This document shows positions 1-49,393 of a stretch of DNA of 64,000 bases, piece after piece. Position 1 is the first letter of the stretch. Every line of letters starts with the position of its first letter. The position numbers and the translations under genes were made by a program. The DNA comes from Minisyncoccia bacterium (GTDB lineage Bacteria > Patescibacteriota > Minisyncoccia > UBA6257 > JAAZHW01), in NCBI GenBank assembly GCA_049720475.1, contig JBNASH010000035.1, positions 84,015 through 148,014 on the forward strand, written 5' to 3'. The notes under the pieces are model-generated. The model was given only the letters and a program-made list of their open reading frames with translations, was not told the DNA's origin and made no database searches.

Positions 1-798
1 ATGGTCCGGTTTTTACTTATGATGAAATCGAAAATAGCCATGACTAAAAAAATAAATAAAAAAATTTCGGTTGGTATTTTTGACTTTACTGACTGTGAAG
101 GTTGCCAAGTAAAATTAGTTTCTTTGCGAGAAAAATTTTTGAAACTTGAGGAAAATTTTGAAATTCTTGCTTGGCGTTTAGGTCAAGAAAAGTTCAACCC
201 CGGCCCATATGATATCGCGATTGTTGAAGGAACACCAATTATGCCAGAAGAAGTGGAATTGCTTAAATCCATTCGGGAAAATTCTAAAATTCTTATTGCT
301 TTTGGAACCTGTGCAGCTTTGGGTGGCATTCCCGCCATTTTATCTGAAAAAGAAAGACAATATTGGTACCAAAAAATTTACGGTCCGAATTACAAACCGC
401 GTGGCATTGAAGCCCAACCTCTTTCCGCTTATGTGCCAGTGGATGTAATTATTAACGGCTGTCCAGTTGATGAGAATGAAATTTTAAAAATTTTTGAAGC
501 CTTCATCGCTGGCAAAAAACCTTATCCCTATGATTATCCAGTTTGCTATGACTGTAAAAAAGCCGGCAATGAATGTCGCCTTCTTAAAGGATTGCCTTGT
601 TTAGGACCGATAACTAAAAATGGTTGTGGTGCGATTTGTATTTCCGGTGGTTCAGCCTGTTATGGTTGCTTTGGTCTTCGCGATGGCGCCAACTTTGAAG
701 CTCTTATCAAAATTTTAGAAAAAATCGCCGATAAAAAAACCGTCGCTTTATATCTCTCAATGTTTCACAAAAAAGATATTAAATATGATAACCAATGA
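1..798 (+). CDS. [NiFe] hydrogenase small (delta/HoxY-MvhG-like) subunit; true start probably an internal ATG at 19-24 or 40-42
   Basis: N-terminal CxxC motif (FDFTDCEGCQ) and multiple C-terminal Cys clusters (CYDCKKAGNEC, CGAICISGGSACYGC), typical of Fe-S-carrying small subunits of cytoplasmic group-3 hydrogenases. Its end overlaps the large-subunit start by 14 nt. Confidence 0.75.
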   Translation: MVRFLLMMKSKIAMTKKINKKISVGIFDFTDCEGCQVKLVSLREKFLKLEENFEILAWRLGQEKFNPGPYDIAIVEGTPIMPEEVELLKSIRENSKILIAFGTCAALGGIPAILSEKERQYWYQKIYGPNYKPRGIEAQPLSAYVPVDVIINGCPVDENEILKIFEAFIAGKKPYPYDYPVCYDCKKAGNECRLLKGLPCLGPITKNGCGAICISGGSACYGCFGLRDGANFEALIKILEKIADKKTVALYLSMFHKKDIKYDNQ

Positions 799-1978
799 AT
801 TTATTGCTAAAATTGAAGGTCATGGCAATTTAAAAGTCGATTGGAAGAATAATAAAGTAATTTTGGAGGTGGCTGAGGGAGAAAGATTGTTTGAAGGATT
901 GTTAGTTGGCCGACCAGCTGAAGAAGCCTATTGGGTCACTCCCCGCATTTGTGGTGTCTGTCCAATTGCTCATAATTTAGCTTCTATTTCAGCTTTAGAA
1001 AATGCCGCCCAAATTAAATTATCCGAACCAATGAAACTTTTAAGAGAACTAATGCAATGCGCCCAAATGATCCAAAGCCACGCCCTGCATCTATTTTTCT
1101 TAGCTCTGCCTGATTATCTAGGTATTGATCGCGGCACAGAATTAAAAAATAAAAATCCGAAAGCCTTCCAAAATGCTTTAGCTTTAAAGGCTTTAGCTGA
1201 TAATTTAGCTTTTGTTTCTGCTGGACGTAATGTCCATCCAACAACTCCAACTCTCGGTGGCTTCAATAAATTGCCAACTCAAAAAGATTTGAAAAGAATG
1301 CTCTCGGAATTAGAAAAAACCGAAGAAATTACTCATTGGCTGGAAAAATTCTGTGAAAATTTAAATTATCCAGATTTAAAAGTTGATTTGGAATTAGTAG
1401 CGATTAAAAACGATTTAATTTATTCTAGCAAAGGTGAAACAGTATCAATAAATGATTACAAAACAGCAATTGAAGAAGAAATTAGAGAGTTTTCAACTGC
1501 CAAGTTTTCTAAATTCCATGGCCGAGAAGTAATGGTTGGCGCTTTGGCGCGTTTATATTTCGAAAAATCCCAAAATAAAAATTTGGATTTTCAAAATCCA
1601 TTTCATAACAACCTTGCTCAAGCCATCGAAATTAAACTCTATCATCAAAAAGCCCAAAAAATTATTAAAAAACTTTTGGAATTTGATCTAAAAAACATTC
1701 CTCATCAAGCTAAGCCAAATTGGCAAAAAAACTCTCAAGGTATTGGTGCAGTAGAAGCACCTCGCGGCGGCCTCTATCATGAAATTCACGTTGATGAAAA
1801 AGGCTTTATTACTTACATAAACATCATTACGCCAACCGTCCAAAATCTTACTTCAATCGAAAAAACCGCTCAATTACTTATTGAACAACACGCCTCTCGA
1901 TCGCAAAAAGAAAAAGAAAAATTGCTTAATATGCTGGTAAGGGCTTATGACCCTTGCATCACTTGTTCAGTGCACTAA
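785..1978 (+). CDS. [NiFe] hydrogenase large (catalytic) subunit
   Basis: N-terminal Ni-Fe ligand motif R-I-C-G-V-C-P-I-A-H (RxCGxCxxxH) and C-terminal DPCITCSVH (DPCxxCxxH). The protein ends exactly at the His with no C-terminal extension. Confidence 0.85.
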   Translation: MITNEFIAKIEGHGNLKVDWKNNKVILEVAEGERLFEGLLVGRPAEEAYWVTPRICGVCPIAHNLASISALENAAQIKLSEPMKLLRELMQCAQMIQSHALHLFFLALPDYLGIDRGTELKNKNPKAFQNALALKALADNLAFVSAGRNVHPTTPTLGGFNKLPTQKDLKRMLSELEKTEEITHWLEKFCENLNYPDLKVDLELVAIKNDLIYSSKGETVSINDYKTAIEEEIREFSTAKFSKFHGREVMVGALARLYFEKSQNKNLDFQNPFHNNLAQAIEIKLYHQKAQKIIKKLLEFDLKNIPHQAKPNWQKNSQGIGAVEAPRGGLYHEIHVDEKGFITYINIITPTVQNLTSIEKTAQLLIEQHASRSQKEKEKLLNMLVRAYDPCITCSVH

Positions 1979-2005
1979 AATTGATATTCTCTAAAAAAAG
2001 AAAAG

Positions 2006-2030
2006 GGCTCGCCTAGCGAGCCTTTTGTTT
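2006..2030. terminator. bidirectional intrinsic terminator (GGCTCGC-cta-GCGAGCC + TTTTGTTT)
   Basis: Perfect 7-bp GC-rich stem followed by a T-run, sitting between convergent genes. The stop codon and C-terminus of the minus-strand ORF lie inside it. Confidence 0.5.
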
Positions 2031-2681
2031 ATTTTTCTTATTGAAATTTCTCAGAGCTTCTTTTGTCAACTGCAATAATTTATCTGCTTCTTTTTGAGAA
2101 ATTTTTTCAATAACTTTGCGGAAATGAACAGTCACCCAATCGCCTTCTTTTAAATCTAAATCTAGCTCATTTTGAACAATCAATTCAACTTTCGGACCCA
2201 AAGTCAATTTGTCCTTTTTTAATGTTTTCGTAATTGGTTGATAAATTACCCACCACTCCCTATTTGAAATTTTGTCGCTAATTTTAGCTGGATGAACAAC
2301 ACAATCATCAACTAACTCTTCAACAATTTGATGCATTTTTATCTGAATGATAGGAATCAAAGTCGAAGCATTATGAATCCACTCCTCTCCTTTTAATTCT
2401 GGATTGCCTTTCCAATAAAAAGAAACGACTTCTTCATCAAATGGTTCTTTGTGATTTAACTGGGCGATTCGGCGATAAAAATCATAACTTAAAAGGTTTT
2501 TTAAAATTTTTTCAATTCTTTCCGCTTCACCTTTGCCATGACGGAAATAATCATACAAATCATTGGAAAATTTAAGCAAACGAGCTTTCTCGCAAACATA
2601 AGAATATTTAGCAGCTAATTTTAATCCTTCCCCTTCCATTTTATCCCTCCTTTTTAAAGAGCTTTTAGTGATGGCTGTCAT
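2013..2681 (-). CDS. hypothetical protein downstream of and overlapping hypC (17-nt overlap)
   Basis: 222-aa ORF co-directional and translationally coupled with hypC. No recognisable motif. Confidence 0.4.
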   Translation of the reverse strand: MTAITKSSLKRRDKMEGEGLKLAAKYSYVCEKARLLKFSNDLYDYFRHGKGEAERIEKILKNLLSYDFYRRIAQLNHKEPFDEEVVSFYWKGNPELKGEEWIHNASTLIPIIQIKMHQIVEELVDDCVVHPAKISDKISNREWWVIYQPITKTLKKDKLTLGPKVELIVQNELDLDLKEGDWVTVHFRKVIEKISQKEADKLLQLTKEALRNFNKKNKQKAR

Positions 2682-2895
2682 GATGACTGGCCTTTATAAA
2701 ATTTAATATTTTTTTCGCTTCTTTCAAGGGTAGTTTGTGAATCGCCAAATCGCCGTGGGCCAAAACAAAATCGCCTTTTTTTGGTTTTTTCTCTTTTATT
2801 AAAGAAATATCGACAATATGAGTGTGACCTTCTCCTTGAACTACTGCCTTATCCTTTTCAATTTTTATAATTCTCATTGGTGTTGCCAAGCACAT
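2665..2895 (-). CDS. hypC: hydrogenase maturation factor HypC/HupF
   Basis: Begins MCLATP (the canonical MC(L/I)A(I/V)P HypC N-terminus with the essential Cys2), and its small size (~76 aa) fits HypC. Confidence 0.8.
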   Translation of the reverse strand: MCLATPMRIIKIEKDKAVVQGEGHTHIVDISLIKEKKPKKGDFVLAHGDLAIHKLPLKEAKKILNFIKASHHDSHH

Positions 2896-2963
2896 AAAAT
2901 TTATTTATTTTCATTATAATATAATTTATGCTATAATAGAATAGTCGAATAAAAAGAGGGTCA

Positions 2964-3263
2964 ATGAAAAAAGTTCTTGGTAAAATAGTTTTAATTTTAG
3001 CGATTGTTGCTTTTTTATTAAGTATTGCCATTATGGTTTTAAATAAAAAAGCTCCTCTACCACAAGAACAAATTGCTTTAAAAAATTGTTTAGAGAGCGG
3101 CGGCCAGGTTGTTTCTGCTTCCTGTTGTCTAAACACTTCTAATTTCCCTGATACTTGCTTAATTGGCGCTTGTGGTTGCGCACCAGACAAAAGCCACATA
3201 GTCCAAATCTGTGATTGCGGTCCTAATAAATGTTTTGATGGTAAAACTTGTGTAAATAGATAA
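2964..3263 (+). CDS. small membrane-anchored/secreted cysteine-rich peptide (10 Cys in a ~55-aa C-terminal domain)
   Basis: Strong SD (AAAGAGGG) 5 nt upstream of the ATG, an N-terminal hydrophobic helix, then a Cys-dense domain (C-x11-CC-x9-C-x4-C-x-C-x12-C-x-C-x4-C-x6-C). The overlapping antisense ORF 2858..3199 has no such support. Confidence 0.55.
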   Translation: MKKVLGKIVLILAIVAFLLSIAIMVLNKKAPLPQEQIALKNCLESGGQVVSASCCLNTSNFPDTCLIGACGCAPDKSHIVQICDCGPNKCFDGKTCVNR

Positions 3264-3265
3264 TT

Positions 3266-3294
3266 TTGACAAAATCATCTTCAAAGATTAAAAT
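3266..3294 (+). promoter_or_regulatory. sigma70-like promoter for tRNA-His (TTGACA-17-TAAAAT)
   Basis: Consensus -35 TTGACA at 3266-3271, a 17-nt spacer, TAAAAT at 3289-3294, and the tRNA starts 12 nt downstream. Confidence 0.4.
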
Positions 3295-3306: not shown

Positions 3307-3383
3307 GGTGGCCTTAGTTCAGCGGCTAGAACGCCTCGTTGTGGCCGAGGAGGTCAGGGGTTCAAATCCCCTAGGCCACCCCA
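3307..3383 (+). tRNA. tRNA-His (anticodon GUG) with encoded G-1 and encoded CCA
   Basis: Cloverleaf folded by hand: acceptor stem GTGGCCT/AGGCCAC, extra 5' G pairing with discriminator C73, anticodon loop TTGTGGC, T-loop TTCAAAT. Confidence 0.9.
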
Positions 3384-3477
3384 AACCTCCTAATCTCAAG
3401 GGGGTTTTTCTTGCTTAATTTTTAAAATTAATTAAACTTAAGGCGGAACTTAAAAATTTCAAAAAAGGAGGAATAGA

Positions 3478-3996: not shown

Positions 3997-4365
3997 ATGA
4001 AAAGAAAAATATTTATCGCCTTAGTAATTTTAATAATGATTCTTTTGACAATTCTTTTTGTCATCGTCAGGAAAAAATCCGATAATCTTTCAACCACTCA
4101 AGTATCTCTTGATCAAAAAAAGGAAATAATTGATCTAAAAAAGCTCGATCCGGACATACGATTAATTTGGCTTTCTGATGAAAACGGCAAAAATTTAAGA
4201 CCAGTTTTAATCCGTATTGGTATTAGCGATGGCCAATACACAGAAATAAAAGAAATTCTTTATGGCGAAATAAAAGAAGGTGATTTTGTTGTTACGGGCA
4301 AAACAACTCCTCAATCCAGCAGTTCCCAACAGGACATTAATAGAATTTTTAGAAGTTTAAGATGA
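3997..4365 (+). CDS. small membrane-anchored protein whose C-terminal half resembles the beta-barrel domain of HlyD/MFP-family periplasmic adaptor proteins
   Basis: Strong SD (GAAGGGGG). An N-terminal TM helix, then LRPVLIRIGISDGQYTEIKEILYGEIKEGDFVVTG, the characteristic C-terminal motif pattern of membrane fusion proteins. It is far too short for a full MFP. Confidence 0.45.
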   Translation: MKRKIFIALVILIMILLTILFVIVRKKSDNLSTTQVSLDQKKEIIDLKKLDPDIRLIWLSDENGKNLRPVLIRIGISDGQYTEIKEILYGEIKEGDFVVTGKTTPQSSSSQQDINRIFRSLR

Positions 4366-29474: not shown

Positions 29475-29489
29475 CGACCGAATATTTAG

Positions 29490-29835
29490 TGGAGATGGCG
29501 GGAATCGAACCCGCGTCGGCGAAAAAGTTGATTTTCAAGCTTTCCAGACAATCAGCCGATTTATCTTAAGGGTTAATATTTAAAATCGGCAAAATTATTA
29601 ACCCCCGTCTTTGGTGTTAGGTTGCTTTTCTAGCCAAAGACACCTAGAAAAAGCCGAGCTCGATAATTTGACACCCTTCTGGCCTATCGAGCATCAGCCA
29701 GTCGGATGGGCTTATGCTAAAGCAAAAGCCAAGTTTCTGCTAAAATTGGCAGTTTTTCTTTCTCGCTTTTTTACGAGGTAGCGAACCCTCGGTCTGACTT
29801 GAAAATGCTTTTTCGCCTCGAGGCCAATCATCCCC
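29490..29835 (-). ncRNA. ssrA: tmRNA (ssrA)
   Basis: 5' end GGGGAUGAUUGG... (G3:U70 alanine identity pair) and a 3' tRNA-like end GCGGGUUCGAUUCCCGCCAUCUCCA, near-identical to E. coli ...GCGGGUUCAACUCCCGCCAGCUCCA. A tag-like reading frame ...GCCAAUUUUAGCAGAAACUUGGCUUUUGCUUUAGCAUAA is present. smpB lies immediately downstream. Confidence 0.85.
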
Positions 29836-36177: not shown

Positions 36178-36334
36178 GAGGGGTCTTTAAGTGGTTAATT
36201 AGCTAGAAATAAAAATCTGGAAAGTTAAAGTGTATAAAATGGCCATTTATAAAAATATACAAAATCTGAGTCTTTTTTACAAGTTTGACTCTGCCAAGCA
36301 TCAAATTCAAAAAATAAATTTAATCATTTATCAG

Positions 36335-36407
36335 TGGGCGCAGATGGATTCGAACCATCGACCCCAGACTTATAAGGTCTGTGCTCTAACCGCTGAGCTA
36401 TGCGCCC
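36335..36407 (-). tRNA. tRNA-Ile with anticodon UAU (AUA-decoding)
   Basis: Hand-folded: acceptor GGGCGCA/TGCGCCC, D-arm GCTC-AGCGGTTA-GAGC, anticodon stem CAGAC/GTCTG, loop CTTATAA (34-36 = TAT), T-arm GATGG-TTCGAAT-CCATC. The body resembles tRNA-Ile. Confidence 0.8.
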
Positions 36408-48937: not shown

Positions 48938-49393
48938 AAGATCAGAAAACCCTGCCGGTGGGCAGGATTTTCTGATCTTTGTTTCTTCAATAAGAATAAG
49001 CCGAATTCTGTACCCATAAAGGGCGGCAACCATTTATCTTGACGCGGTATTGCTACCACGTTCAGAGCGATCTACCTGTCGCTTGCGCGACAACTTGATC
49101 TTGCACCAGGAAGGGTTTGCCACCTCTAATTGTCACCAATTAGAGTTGGGAGCTCTTACCTCCACTCTTTTCACCCTTGGTCACCTCAAAAAATACTGAG
49201 GTGGCCGGTATAGTTTCTGTGGCACTTTCCCTAATCACGTTTAAACGTGATCGGTTGCGGTTAGCAACTTCCTTCTTCTGCTATCTTCCTAAGAAAATAG
49301 CAGGGTGTTCGGACTTTCCTCTGTTGATGTTTATTATTGATGATTGCTCATCTCAAAACACCAACAGCAGTTGCCTACTTATTGAAGAAACTG
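48938..49393 (-). ncRNA. rnpB: RNase P RNA (bacterial type, minus strand) including 3' terminator hairpin 48938..48980
   Basis: Reverse complement contains the P4 strands GAGGAAAGTCCGAACACC (cf. E. coli GAGGAAAGUCCGGGCUCC) and GGGTACAGAATTCGGCTTA (cf. ACAGAACCCGGCUUA). Also GGGAAAGTGCCACAGAAA, GGTAAGAGCTCCC, and a P1 pairing AGTTTCTTCAATAAG/CTTATTGAAGAAAC. A long perfect hairpin + T-run sits at the 3' end. Confidence 0.75.

Follow-up and report, generated by a model that had tools for sequence, protein, structure and literature searches.

What a 99-residue protein with ten cysteines might do in an uncultured member of the Patescibacteria is the question raised by a small gene in a 64,000-nucleotide stretch of the Minisyncoccia bacterium contig JBNASH010000035.1 (hereafter the window, meaning this stretch at its full length). 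The coding sequence, read from the ORF list, occupies positions 2964..3263 of the + strand, starts with ATG and encodes 99 aa plus a stop codon. An initial annotation, made from the sequence alone, had described its product as a Cys-dense exported mini-protein reminiscent of knottins or defensin-like peptides, such as toxins, bacteriocins or protease inhibitors. The analysis presented here places it elsewhere: the Cys-rich part is a single copy of a domain with ten conserved Cys, the ten-Cys domain, which is well supported, on comparison of its many relatives, as an extracytoplasmic, disulfide-rich module of a large unannotated family. The window protein itself is probably membrane-anchored, with one such domain as its whole ectodomain, serving as a stable surface module for binding or scaffolding. 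Patescibacteria and DPANN archaea represent a large share of microbial diversity, and most of their surface proteins, likely tools of an attached lifestyle, carry no annotation.

The open reading frame (ORF) is a real gene on the + strand, as first proposed. An identical protein is deposited at NCBI under the name 'MAG: hypothetical protein ACP5IX_00435 [Patescibacteria group bacterium]', and comparison with the orthologue at locus L007 gave a ratio of nonsynonymous to synonymous substitution rates (dN/dS) of 0.16 for the whole gene and 0.12 for the Cys-rich part, with synonymous sites near saturation (dS 1.1). The gene is under purifying selection. Two orthologues, with identities of 73% and about 60%, keep all ten Cys. 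The window has 34% G+C and a Cys frequency of 0.77% in its 21 long ORFs, and the probability of finding at least 10 Cys in 58 aa was calculated as 2.7e-11, or ~3e-6 when corrected over all six-frame windows. The 113-aa ORF on the opposite strand (2858..3199, -), already dismissed as spurious in the initial annotation, is indeed a shadow ORF and not a gene, being broken in orthologues; the longest stop-free stretch on the antisense strand of L001 spans only 30 aa. Many unrelated family members likewise show antisense ORFs over the ten-Cys domain, which only mirror the conserved coding strand, and the apparent conserved neighbours seen in 25 loci and in 12 loci were both rejected as such shadows.

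Four parts can be delimited in the protein, all on the + strand. Residues 1-7 (MKKVLGK; 2964..2984) form a short basic tail, which would lie in the cytoplasm judging from homologues with lipobox or signal-peptide sequences. Residues 8-26 (IVLILAIVAFLLSIAIMVL; 2985..3041) form an uninterrupted hydrophobic run of 19 residues, flanked by K2, K3 and K7 before and by K28 and K29 after, and AlphaFold2 (AF2), run on a 3-sequence alignment, predicts a helix at residues 2-26. The sequence then reads NKKAPLPQEQIALKN before the 58-residue C-terminal part that holds the ten Cys; residues 27-39 (NKKAPLPQEQIAL; 3042..3080) represent a linker, variable among orthologues and outside the family profile, and residues 40-99 (3081..3260) the ten-Cys domain, recognized by profile match, consensus and AF2 model, with its SGG, NFPD, IGACGC, SH and CFDG motifs. 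Both the helix and the Cys density had been seen correctly from the start. The ten Cys stand at residues 42, 54, 55, 65, 70, 72, 83, 85, 90 and 96, giving the spacing C-x11-CC-x9-C-x4-C-x-C-x10-C-x-C-x4-C-x5-C, which agrees with the first description in most spacers and corrects two that had been miscounted (x12 and x6, in fact x10 and x5).

The export claim holds in part: the Cys-rich part is extracytoplasmic and most likely disulfide-bonded. A released antimicrobial or toxin peptide of ~60-70 aa after cleavage, of defensin, knottin or bacteriocin type and directed against competitors or a host, would suit the small size, the high Cys density and the N-terminal export signal of the window protein. 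However, inspection of the sequence found no small-x-small (AXA-type) site after its helix, where the sole Ala precedes a Pro; with a hydrophobic run as long as 19 residues, the helix is therefore read as an uncleaved signal anchor and not as the leader of a released peptide. The window protein would accordingly be of type II, oriented N-in/C-out. A type IV pilin or pseudopilin was also considered and rejected, since the window protein has LG-KIVLIL without Glu at +5 and does not carry the class III signal (G then F/M-x-x-x-E); the same applies to Patescibacteria family members whose common anchor, MSKTIIAIIIII..GLGYWIYQS, lacks the class III motif.

The family became visible only through an exhaustive search. 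A word-indexed (k-mer) homologue search with the single window protein returned only 3 proteins, whereas HMMER over 1.84 billion cluster representatives (clusters at 50% identity) brought up 876 representative clusters at E<=1e-3, of which 528 reach E<=1e-10; the matches cover query positions about 40-98 in hundreds of proteins. The 150 best proteins range from 76 to 1096 aa and contain 1-4 copies of the domain each, as counted by local hmmsearch. In 153 proteins, 207 domain instances were delimited, and Cys occupies all ten conserved columns in 165 of them, so that the Cys pattern noted at the outset, kept in every orthologue, is conserved across the family too. The consensus is C-x2-S-G-G-x-V-x-T-x2-C-C-x-S-x2-D-F-P-N-x-C-x-I-G-A-C-G-C-S-P-x2-S-H-x-V-x2-C-x-C-G-x-G-x-C-F-D-G-x2-C, where SGG, the F and P of DFPN, the G-A-C-G-C stretch, the Ser of SH and FDG are conserved at 76-99%, and the His of SH at 81%, with K, E, Q or R otherwise. 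The spacing of the family allows C-x11(12)-CC at the N-terminal end and C-x5(6)-C at the C-terminal end, which the window protein fits. Its Cys-rich segment matches the family profile with E=8.8e-27, and it shows the three family traits together: the ten-Cys spacing, the SGG/[DN]FP[ND]/IGACGC/SH/CFDG motifs and an N-terminal export signal.

No Pfam or NCBIfam model describes this domain. The Cys-rich part found no match in Pfam, NCBIfam, PHROGs (above noise) or PADLOC, and in Pfam at E<=10 the sole match of the window protein was an unrelated domain of unknown function (DUF) placed on the transmembrane (TM) helix. None of the 53 proteins collected in a second word-indexed search has a precomputed Pfam domain, and such names as they have are 'hypothetical', except for one Joint Genome Institute label, 'uncharacterized protein YceK'. 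Since no Pfam family is common to more than 8 of the 97 long members, no Pfam model covers the ten-Cys domain, which is an unannotated family without a Pfam or NCBIfam model. Literature searches found no published description of it.

Export signals are common in these proteins. A hydrophobic segment begins 253 of the 277 distinct family proteins (91%): 167 are anchor-like, with a run of at least 18 residues, 57 are lipobox-like and 29 resemble shorter signal peptides. The lipobox-like motif ending in Cys (e.g. ...VSGC) is typical of archaeal members, and 134 family proteins have more basic residues ahead of the helix than behind it, against 43 with the opposite balance. In 79 of the 277 the domain stands alone, as in the window protein (an export signal and one domain, in at most 125 aa); in 77 it is membrane-proximal and followed by other sequence, in 50 C-terminal, in 44 arranged in tandem (2-4 copies) and in 27 internal. 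The Pfam partners among the 97 long members are PsbP_2 (8), DUF4382 (3) and DUF5667, staphylococcal nuclease, DUF333 and Gmad2 (2 each), besides single cases of Calx-beta with PLD, chagasin I42, Kazal, cupredoxin/plastocyanin, PG_binding_1, peptidase C39-like and EF-hand/dockerin-like motifs. As most family proteins carry export signals and the fusion partners are extracytoplasmic, the domain is displayed outside the membrane. Among Nealsonbacteria-like genomes there are many paralogues with a near-identical anchor (MSKTIIAIIIII..GLGYWIYQS..PEELTEKEQAC) and the ten-Cys domain, followed by unrelated C-terminal regions (ORF starts at L022, L024, L026, L027, L037, L044, L047, L048, L064-L066 and others). 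They are sometimes adjacent genes, as in L048, where two lie ~1.1 kb apart, and look like a surface protein family with a constant stem and a variable head. As an aside, the metagenomic, multi-copy proteins P0004 and P0008 have long Pro/Thr/Gly/Glu-rich linkers and low-complexity tails that are eukaryote-like in look.

Some of these architectures bring to mind a protease inhibitor, tethered to the surface or secreted, that would block host or environmental proteases in the manner of Kazal, antistasin or chagasin. Inhibitors typically consist of small disulfide-rich domains in tandem arrays; a chagasin I42 (E=1e-22), a Kazal (E=1.6e-6) or an antistasin-like (E=4.5e-4) region is joined to the domain in single members of the family, and one tandem member lies near genes for an M10 peptidase and a serpin. 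Yet each such fusion occurs once among the 97 long members, and no inhibitor family matches the ten-Cys domain itself. Reactive loops of inhibitors are usually variable, while in this domain conservation is highest in the least regular loop (DFPN-C-x-IGACGC). An inhibitor is consequently unlikely.

How far the domain extends among microorganisms was addressed by a pattern-seeded scan in which each GTDB species was represented by one genome. The scan was seeded from an alignment of closer sequences and is therefore biased to CLIGACGC-type sequences, so that its result of at least 120 confirmed loci gives a minimum and cannot be read as an unbiased census. Eighty of 120 loci were examined further, and about 50 belong to Patescibacteria, 18 to archaea, 4 to other bacteria and 8 to unclassified bacteria. 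The first group comprises Paceibacterota, Nealsonbacteria, Staskawicz-, Portnoy- and Berkelbacteria, Minisyncoccales and metagenome-assembled genomes labelled Saccharibacteria; the archaeal loci are from Aenigmat-, Micr-, Nano- and Iainarchaeota, Altiarchaeota, Methanomicrobiaceae and Methanocellales, and the other bacteria are Desulfobacterales, a delta-proteobacterium, Binatia and Clostridia. Complete Nealsonbacteria genomes, of only 0.64-0.69 Mb, have two loci each among those listed. Archaeal copies and those from the candidate phyla radiation (CPR) share a median identity of 0.64, with a maximum of 0.80, and the median within each group is the same, which indicates that the domain is under strong constraint across Bacteria and Archaea and has probably been exchanged horizontally. 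No match to the ten-Cys domain was found in viral contigs, GenBank phages or plasmid collections.

Such distribution is also what recommends a homotypic docking role, in which the anchored stand-alone copy would be the membrane receptor for secreted proteins, or proteins of neighbouring cells, bearing the same domain, possibly between episymbiont and host. The anchored stand-alone form (79 proteins) coexists in the family with copies at the C-terminal end of unrelated secreted proteins (50), several copies are found per tiny genome, as in the complete Nealsonbacteria genomes, identity is very high across two domains of life, and the domain is common to CPR bacteria, DPANN archaea and methanogens of the same habitats. 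The argument is, however, purely architectural, and as an explanation of the window protein it appears improbable. A bolder version deserves slightly more credit, although it is doubtful as well: the domain could serve ultra-small symbionts for docking or attachment across the two domains of life, being displayed by CPR bacteria, DPANN archaea, and methanogen or other hosts and holding cells or secreted enzymes at the cell surface, homotypically or through a shared ligand. The window protein would then be the receptor half, with a fold not represented in the PDB.

The arrangement of the disulfides is suggested by Cys-poor variants, which lose their Cys in pairs: C2 with C5 in 7 instances, C4 with C9 in 2 and C3 with C6 in 1. 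From these losses we infer the disulfides C2-C5, C3-C6 and C4-C9, corresponding to C54-C70, C55-C72 and C65-C90 in the window protein. The remaining C1, C7, C8 and C10 would form two further disulfides, for which the pairs C1-C7 and C8-C10 are a guess by analogy with EGF-type hairpins. It has been described that CPR bacteria commonly encode an MdbA-like thiol-disulfide oxidoreductase beside VKOR (bioRxiv 10.1101/335083), which makes the formation of extracytoplasmic disulfides plausible. Within the 64-kb window there is no second copy of the domain and no DsbD or VKOR-thioredoxin homologue, a result that says nothing on the rest of the genome.

Structure prediction was greatly influenced by alignment depth. 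With a 3-sequence alignment the AF2 predicted local distance difference test (pLDDT) score was 55, and below 50 over residues 52-95; with a diverse alignment of 46 sequences the window domain reached a pLDDT of 93.4 and a predicted template modelling score (pTM) of 0.72, all five models scoring at least 90. In the model a short helix at the N-terminus precedes a long beta-strand (QVVSASCC), which pairs in the secondary structure with another long strand (HIVQICDC); between these two strands there is an irregular loop of 20 residues that is highly conserved, and a small hairpin lies at the C-terminal end. With Foldseek, which is weak on small disulfide-rich folds, the best match in the PDB was 7c28 (E=6.1, template modelling (TM) score 0.25, root-mean-square deviation 8.7) and the best in BFVD had E=6.9 with a TM score of 0.33 or less. 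Profile comparison with PDB sequences returned only noise: beta-defensin 1 (2nlq) at E=0.53, which was gone with a deeper profile, fasciculin at E=3.9-6.3 and the finger/EGF region of tPA at E=6.7. The predicted model is thus a confident one of a fold that appears to have no solved relative, and the resemblance to toxins suggested at first finds no counterpart in it.

The evidence on a released toxin can now be put together. Profile similarity is weak and non-significant, at E=0.53 for beta-defensin 1 and E=3.9 for fasciculin, and there is no toxin fold match. For the most part the domain occurs as a module within larger surface proteins, and its identity of about 64% across Bacteria and Archaea is unlike what is seen in fast-evolving toxins; collections of phages and plasmids, too, are without it. 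Genes for immunity, ABC export or modification are missing nearby, the ABC genes found in 8 of 80 loci being generic and at varying distance. A bacteriocin or secreted toxin locus was rejected on similar grounds, as the gene has hypC, tRNA-His and hypothetical genes around it in the window, and no neighbour is shared beyond 8 of 80 loci. Together with the missing cleavage site, these observations make the toxin reading unlikely, indeed one of the least probable considered, and the locus cannot be called of toxin or bacteriocin type.

The use of the same module alone, as a stem, at the C-terminus and in tandem is the reason why it is read as a stable surface module for binding or scaffolding, a role that we put forward as a hypothesis. 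This module-like use, combined with extreme conservation across Bacteria and Archaea, favours it over an arms-race toxin. In the proposed mechanism, the N-terminal helix would be inserted via Sec/YidC and stay in the membrane as a signal anchor, while the ten-Cys domain would fold on the outer face and be oxidised to five disulfides. The module could then recognise one conserved partner, or itself, through the near-invariant SGG / DFPN-C-x-IGACGC / SH surface, and the window protein would display it alone.

Some points weigh against this picture of an anchored, disulfide-bonded surface module. Signal cleavage was assessed by eye, and the positive-inside rule is ambiguous for the window protein, with 3 K before the helix and 3 K within 15 residues after it, for which reason its N-in/C-out topology was deduced from family homologues. 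The disulfide map depends on few variant sequences, and P0145, which is without C3 and C9, does not fit the pairing. To these may be added the weakness of Foldseek on folds of this kind. It may also be that the conserved Gly, Pro, Asp and Phe serve structure alone and mark no binding surface. Finally, no neighbour family was present in more than 8 of the 80 diverse loci, those 8 being generic ABC ATPases at varying distances. All the same, a membrane-anchored protein whose ectodomain is one binding or scaffold module is judged the probable explanation.

Judged by its neighbourhood, the gene could have another function, in binding or handling a metal (Ni or Fe in hydrogenase maturation, or Cu), with Cys as thiolate ligands and not in disulfides. 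Gene order in the window and in its close relatives runs from group-3b-type [NiFe]-hydrogenase genes through DUF6390 (-) and hypC (-) to the divergent Cys-rich gene and tRNA-His, and then through four small hypothetical genes, RNase Y, HU and a sigma factor to rpmH-rnpA-yidC. The Cys-rich gene is therefore divergent from hypC and adjoins a group-3b-like [NiFe]-hydrogenase operon; one distant member (L008) is found beside DsbD_TM, a CopZ-like HMA protein, a CopA-type ATPase and a thioredoxin-fold protein, and His, Asp and Ser residues are conserved in the domain. Nevertheless, the more distant orthologous loci L014, L015 and, from GTDB, L016 and L020 show tRNA-Leu, an 85-aa gene, the Cys-rich gene and tRNA-His, on to RNase Y, and have no hydrogenase/HypC block, while in L001 the 85-aa gene and the Cys-rich gene are separated by exactly this block. 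The block consists of a four-gene group-3b-like [NiFe]-hydrogenase operon, DUF6390 and hypC, of ~4.6 kb (window 1..2895; L001 1080..5942 versus L014 4725..5324).

Because these related Paceibacterota loci keep the gene order without a hydrogenase, the neighbourhood is to be taken as an insertion and not as a functional association, and it looks like a hydrogenase island inserted near the rpmH-rnpA-yidC/parB region. A functional link to the [NiFe]-hydrogenase/HypC was rejected on account of this position relative to L014/L015, and a role as a Hyp accessory protein was rejected too, as the block is missing from L014, L015, L016, L020 and other family loci. Moreover, no hydrogenase or metal gene is recurrent in the 80 loci, the domain is exported, its Cys are lost in pairs, and the His, conserved at only 81%, gives way to K, E, Q or R. 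Export and paired Cys loss also speak, indirectly, against a metallothionein-like protein with reduced thiols, which would typically be cytoplasmic. Metal handling is accordingly unlikely, and the surface module is retained. Regarding the block itself, the 222-aa DUF6390 protein (2013..2681, -) overlaps hypC by 17 nt and its C-terminal part has a weak HupF/HypC match (E=6e-4, below cutoff), so it might act together with HypC as a related maturation factor; beside DUF6390/hypC no other hyp gene is visible nearby.

The adjacency to tRNA-His, given weight in the first description, is real and amounts to lineage-specific synteny. The tRNA-His(GTG) gene (3308..3383) lies 44 nt beyond the stop codon that ends the Cys-rich gene. 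It has its own promoter, TTGACA-17-TAAAAT (3266..3294), which begins 3 nt after this stop codon and is invariant in five loci (window, L001, L007, L014, L016) whose coding sequences have diverged to about 50-75% identity; in the window a terminator-like hairpin is seen directly 3' of the tRNA (3383..3407). A functional link to tRNA-His was rejected, given this promoter and an adjacency limited to the orthologue group. In other contexts, a PycTM gene lies near the domain in L012 and peptidase M10 and serpin genes in L096; these two, L008 and the archaeal L097 share nothing consistent.

Upstream of the Cys-rich gene, a consensus scan located a promoter-like site on the + strand (2908..2937), made of TTTTCA, 18 nt and an extended -10 element (TG-n-TATAAT), which would act as a promoter. 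The TGnTATAAT element aligns at L001 and L007, the closest orthologous loci; at L014 and L016 the Cys-rich gene instead lies 18 bp behind the 85-aa gene. The Shine-Dalgarno-like sequence AAAGAGGG, just 5' of the ATG (2953..2960, +), had been described as strong; it is present in the window and is not conserved in the orthologous loci compared (L007, L001, L014, L016).

Other features of the window can be recorded here. At 3997..4365 (+) there is a 122-aa protein with an N-terminal TM helix and no Pfam match, whose C-terminal part (…RPVLIRIGISDGQYTEIKEILYGEIKEGDFVV…) resembles by eye a membrane-fusion beta-barrel of HlyD/MacA type. ARAGORN reported a tRNA-Ile with anticodon TAT (UAU) at 36334..36407 (-), an unusual way of reading AUA that, if genuine, would make lysidine (TilS) unnecessary. 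Rfam matched a full-length tmRNA (146 bits) at 29487..29835 (-), not reported by ARAGORN, and a class-A RNase P RNA (199 bits) at 48982..49386 (-).

The interest of the finding is greater as a family than as a single gene. It defines a compact and very conserved domain, probably with five disulfides, that is used repeatedly by Patescibacteria and DPANN archaea, and giving the family a name and a confident model would sharpen the annotation of proteins now called 'hypothetical', which number in the hundreds. At ~60 aa, the domain is a small and tractable target for structure and binding studies. A further question that it poses is by what means strict anaerobes, with their tiny genomes, produce surface proteins so rich in disulfides, and in what way they use them.

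Among known systems, three-finger toxins and Ly6-uPAR proteins share with the ten-Cys domain the size of ~60 aa, 8-10 Cys, a beta-rich and extracellular nature and the occurrence in free or membrane-tethered form. They also gave the top, non-significant matches by Foldseek (7c28) and profile (fasciculin, with a common 'CGCP' stretch), but these eukaryotic families differ in Cys spacing and in the proposed pairs and have no Pfam match (E 3.9-6, TM 0.25), and membership was rejected on the fasciculin and 7c28 values given above. Knottins and beta-defensins are likewise small, exported and disulfide-rich, and the putative II-V and III-VI pairs recall knot numbering; they have, however, 6 Cys in about 30-45 aa, versus 10 Cys in 58 aa with CC at II-III. 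A knottin or inhibitor cystine knot (I-IV, II-V, III-VI) was rejected for this reason and for want of a Pfam or Foldseek match, and a beta-defensin since the 2nlq match was lost with a deeper profile and Foldseek gave none. The families named in the initial annotation, like three-finger toxins, are thus set aside, with no Pfam, NCBIfam or PDB-profile match to knottins, defensins, bacteriocins or protease inhibitors. A resemblance to hevein and chitin-binding domains (C..GG…CC.S) was dropped because there is no Pfam match and the aromatic ligand residues are missing.

Closer in part are EGF and laminin-EGF domains. The C-terminal third of the ten-Cys domain (C-x-C-x4-C-F-D-G-x2-C, a predicted small beta-hairpin) resembles the C-terminal half of EGF, and both are used in tandem arrays and as the stalk of surface proteins; still, no EGF model matches, the tPA finger/EGF region reaching only E=6.7, and the N-terminal two thirds are without an EGF counterpart. 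SLH, LysM, dockerin/cohesin and CARDB-type modules have no sequence relationship to the ten-Cys domain and are not disulfide-rich, but they are used alike: behind export signals, near anchors, in tandem, and fused to unrelated extracytoplasmic enzymes or binding domains. The ten-Cys domain is therefore best described as a new family among the small disulfide-rich extracytoplasmic domains.

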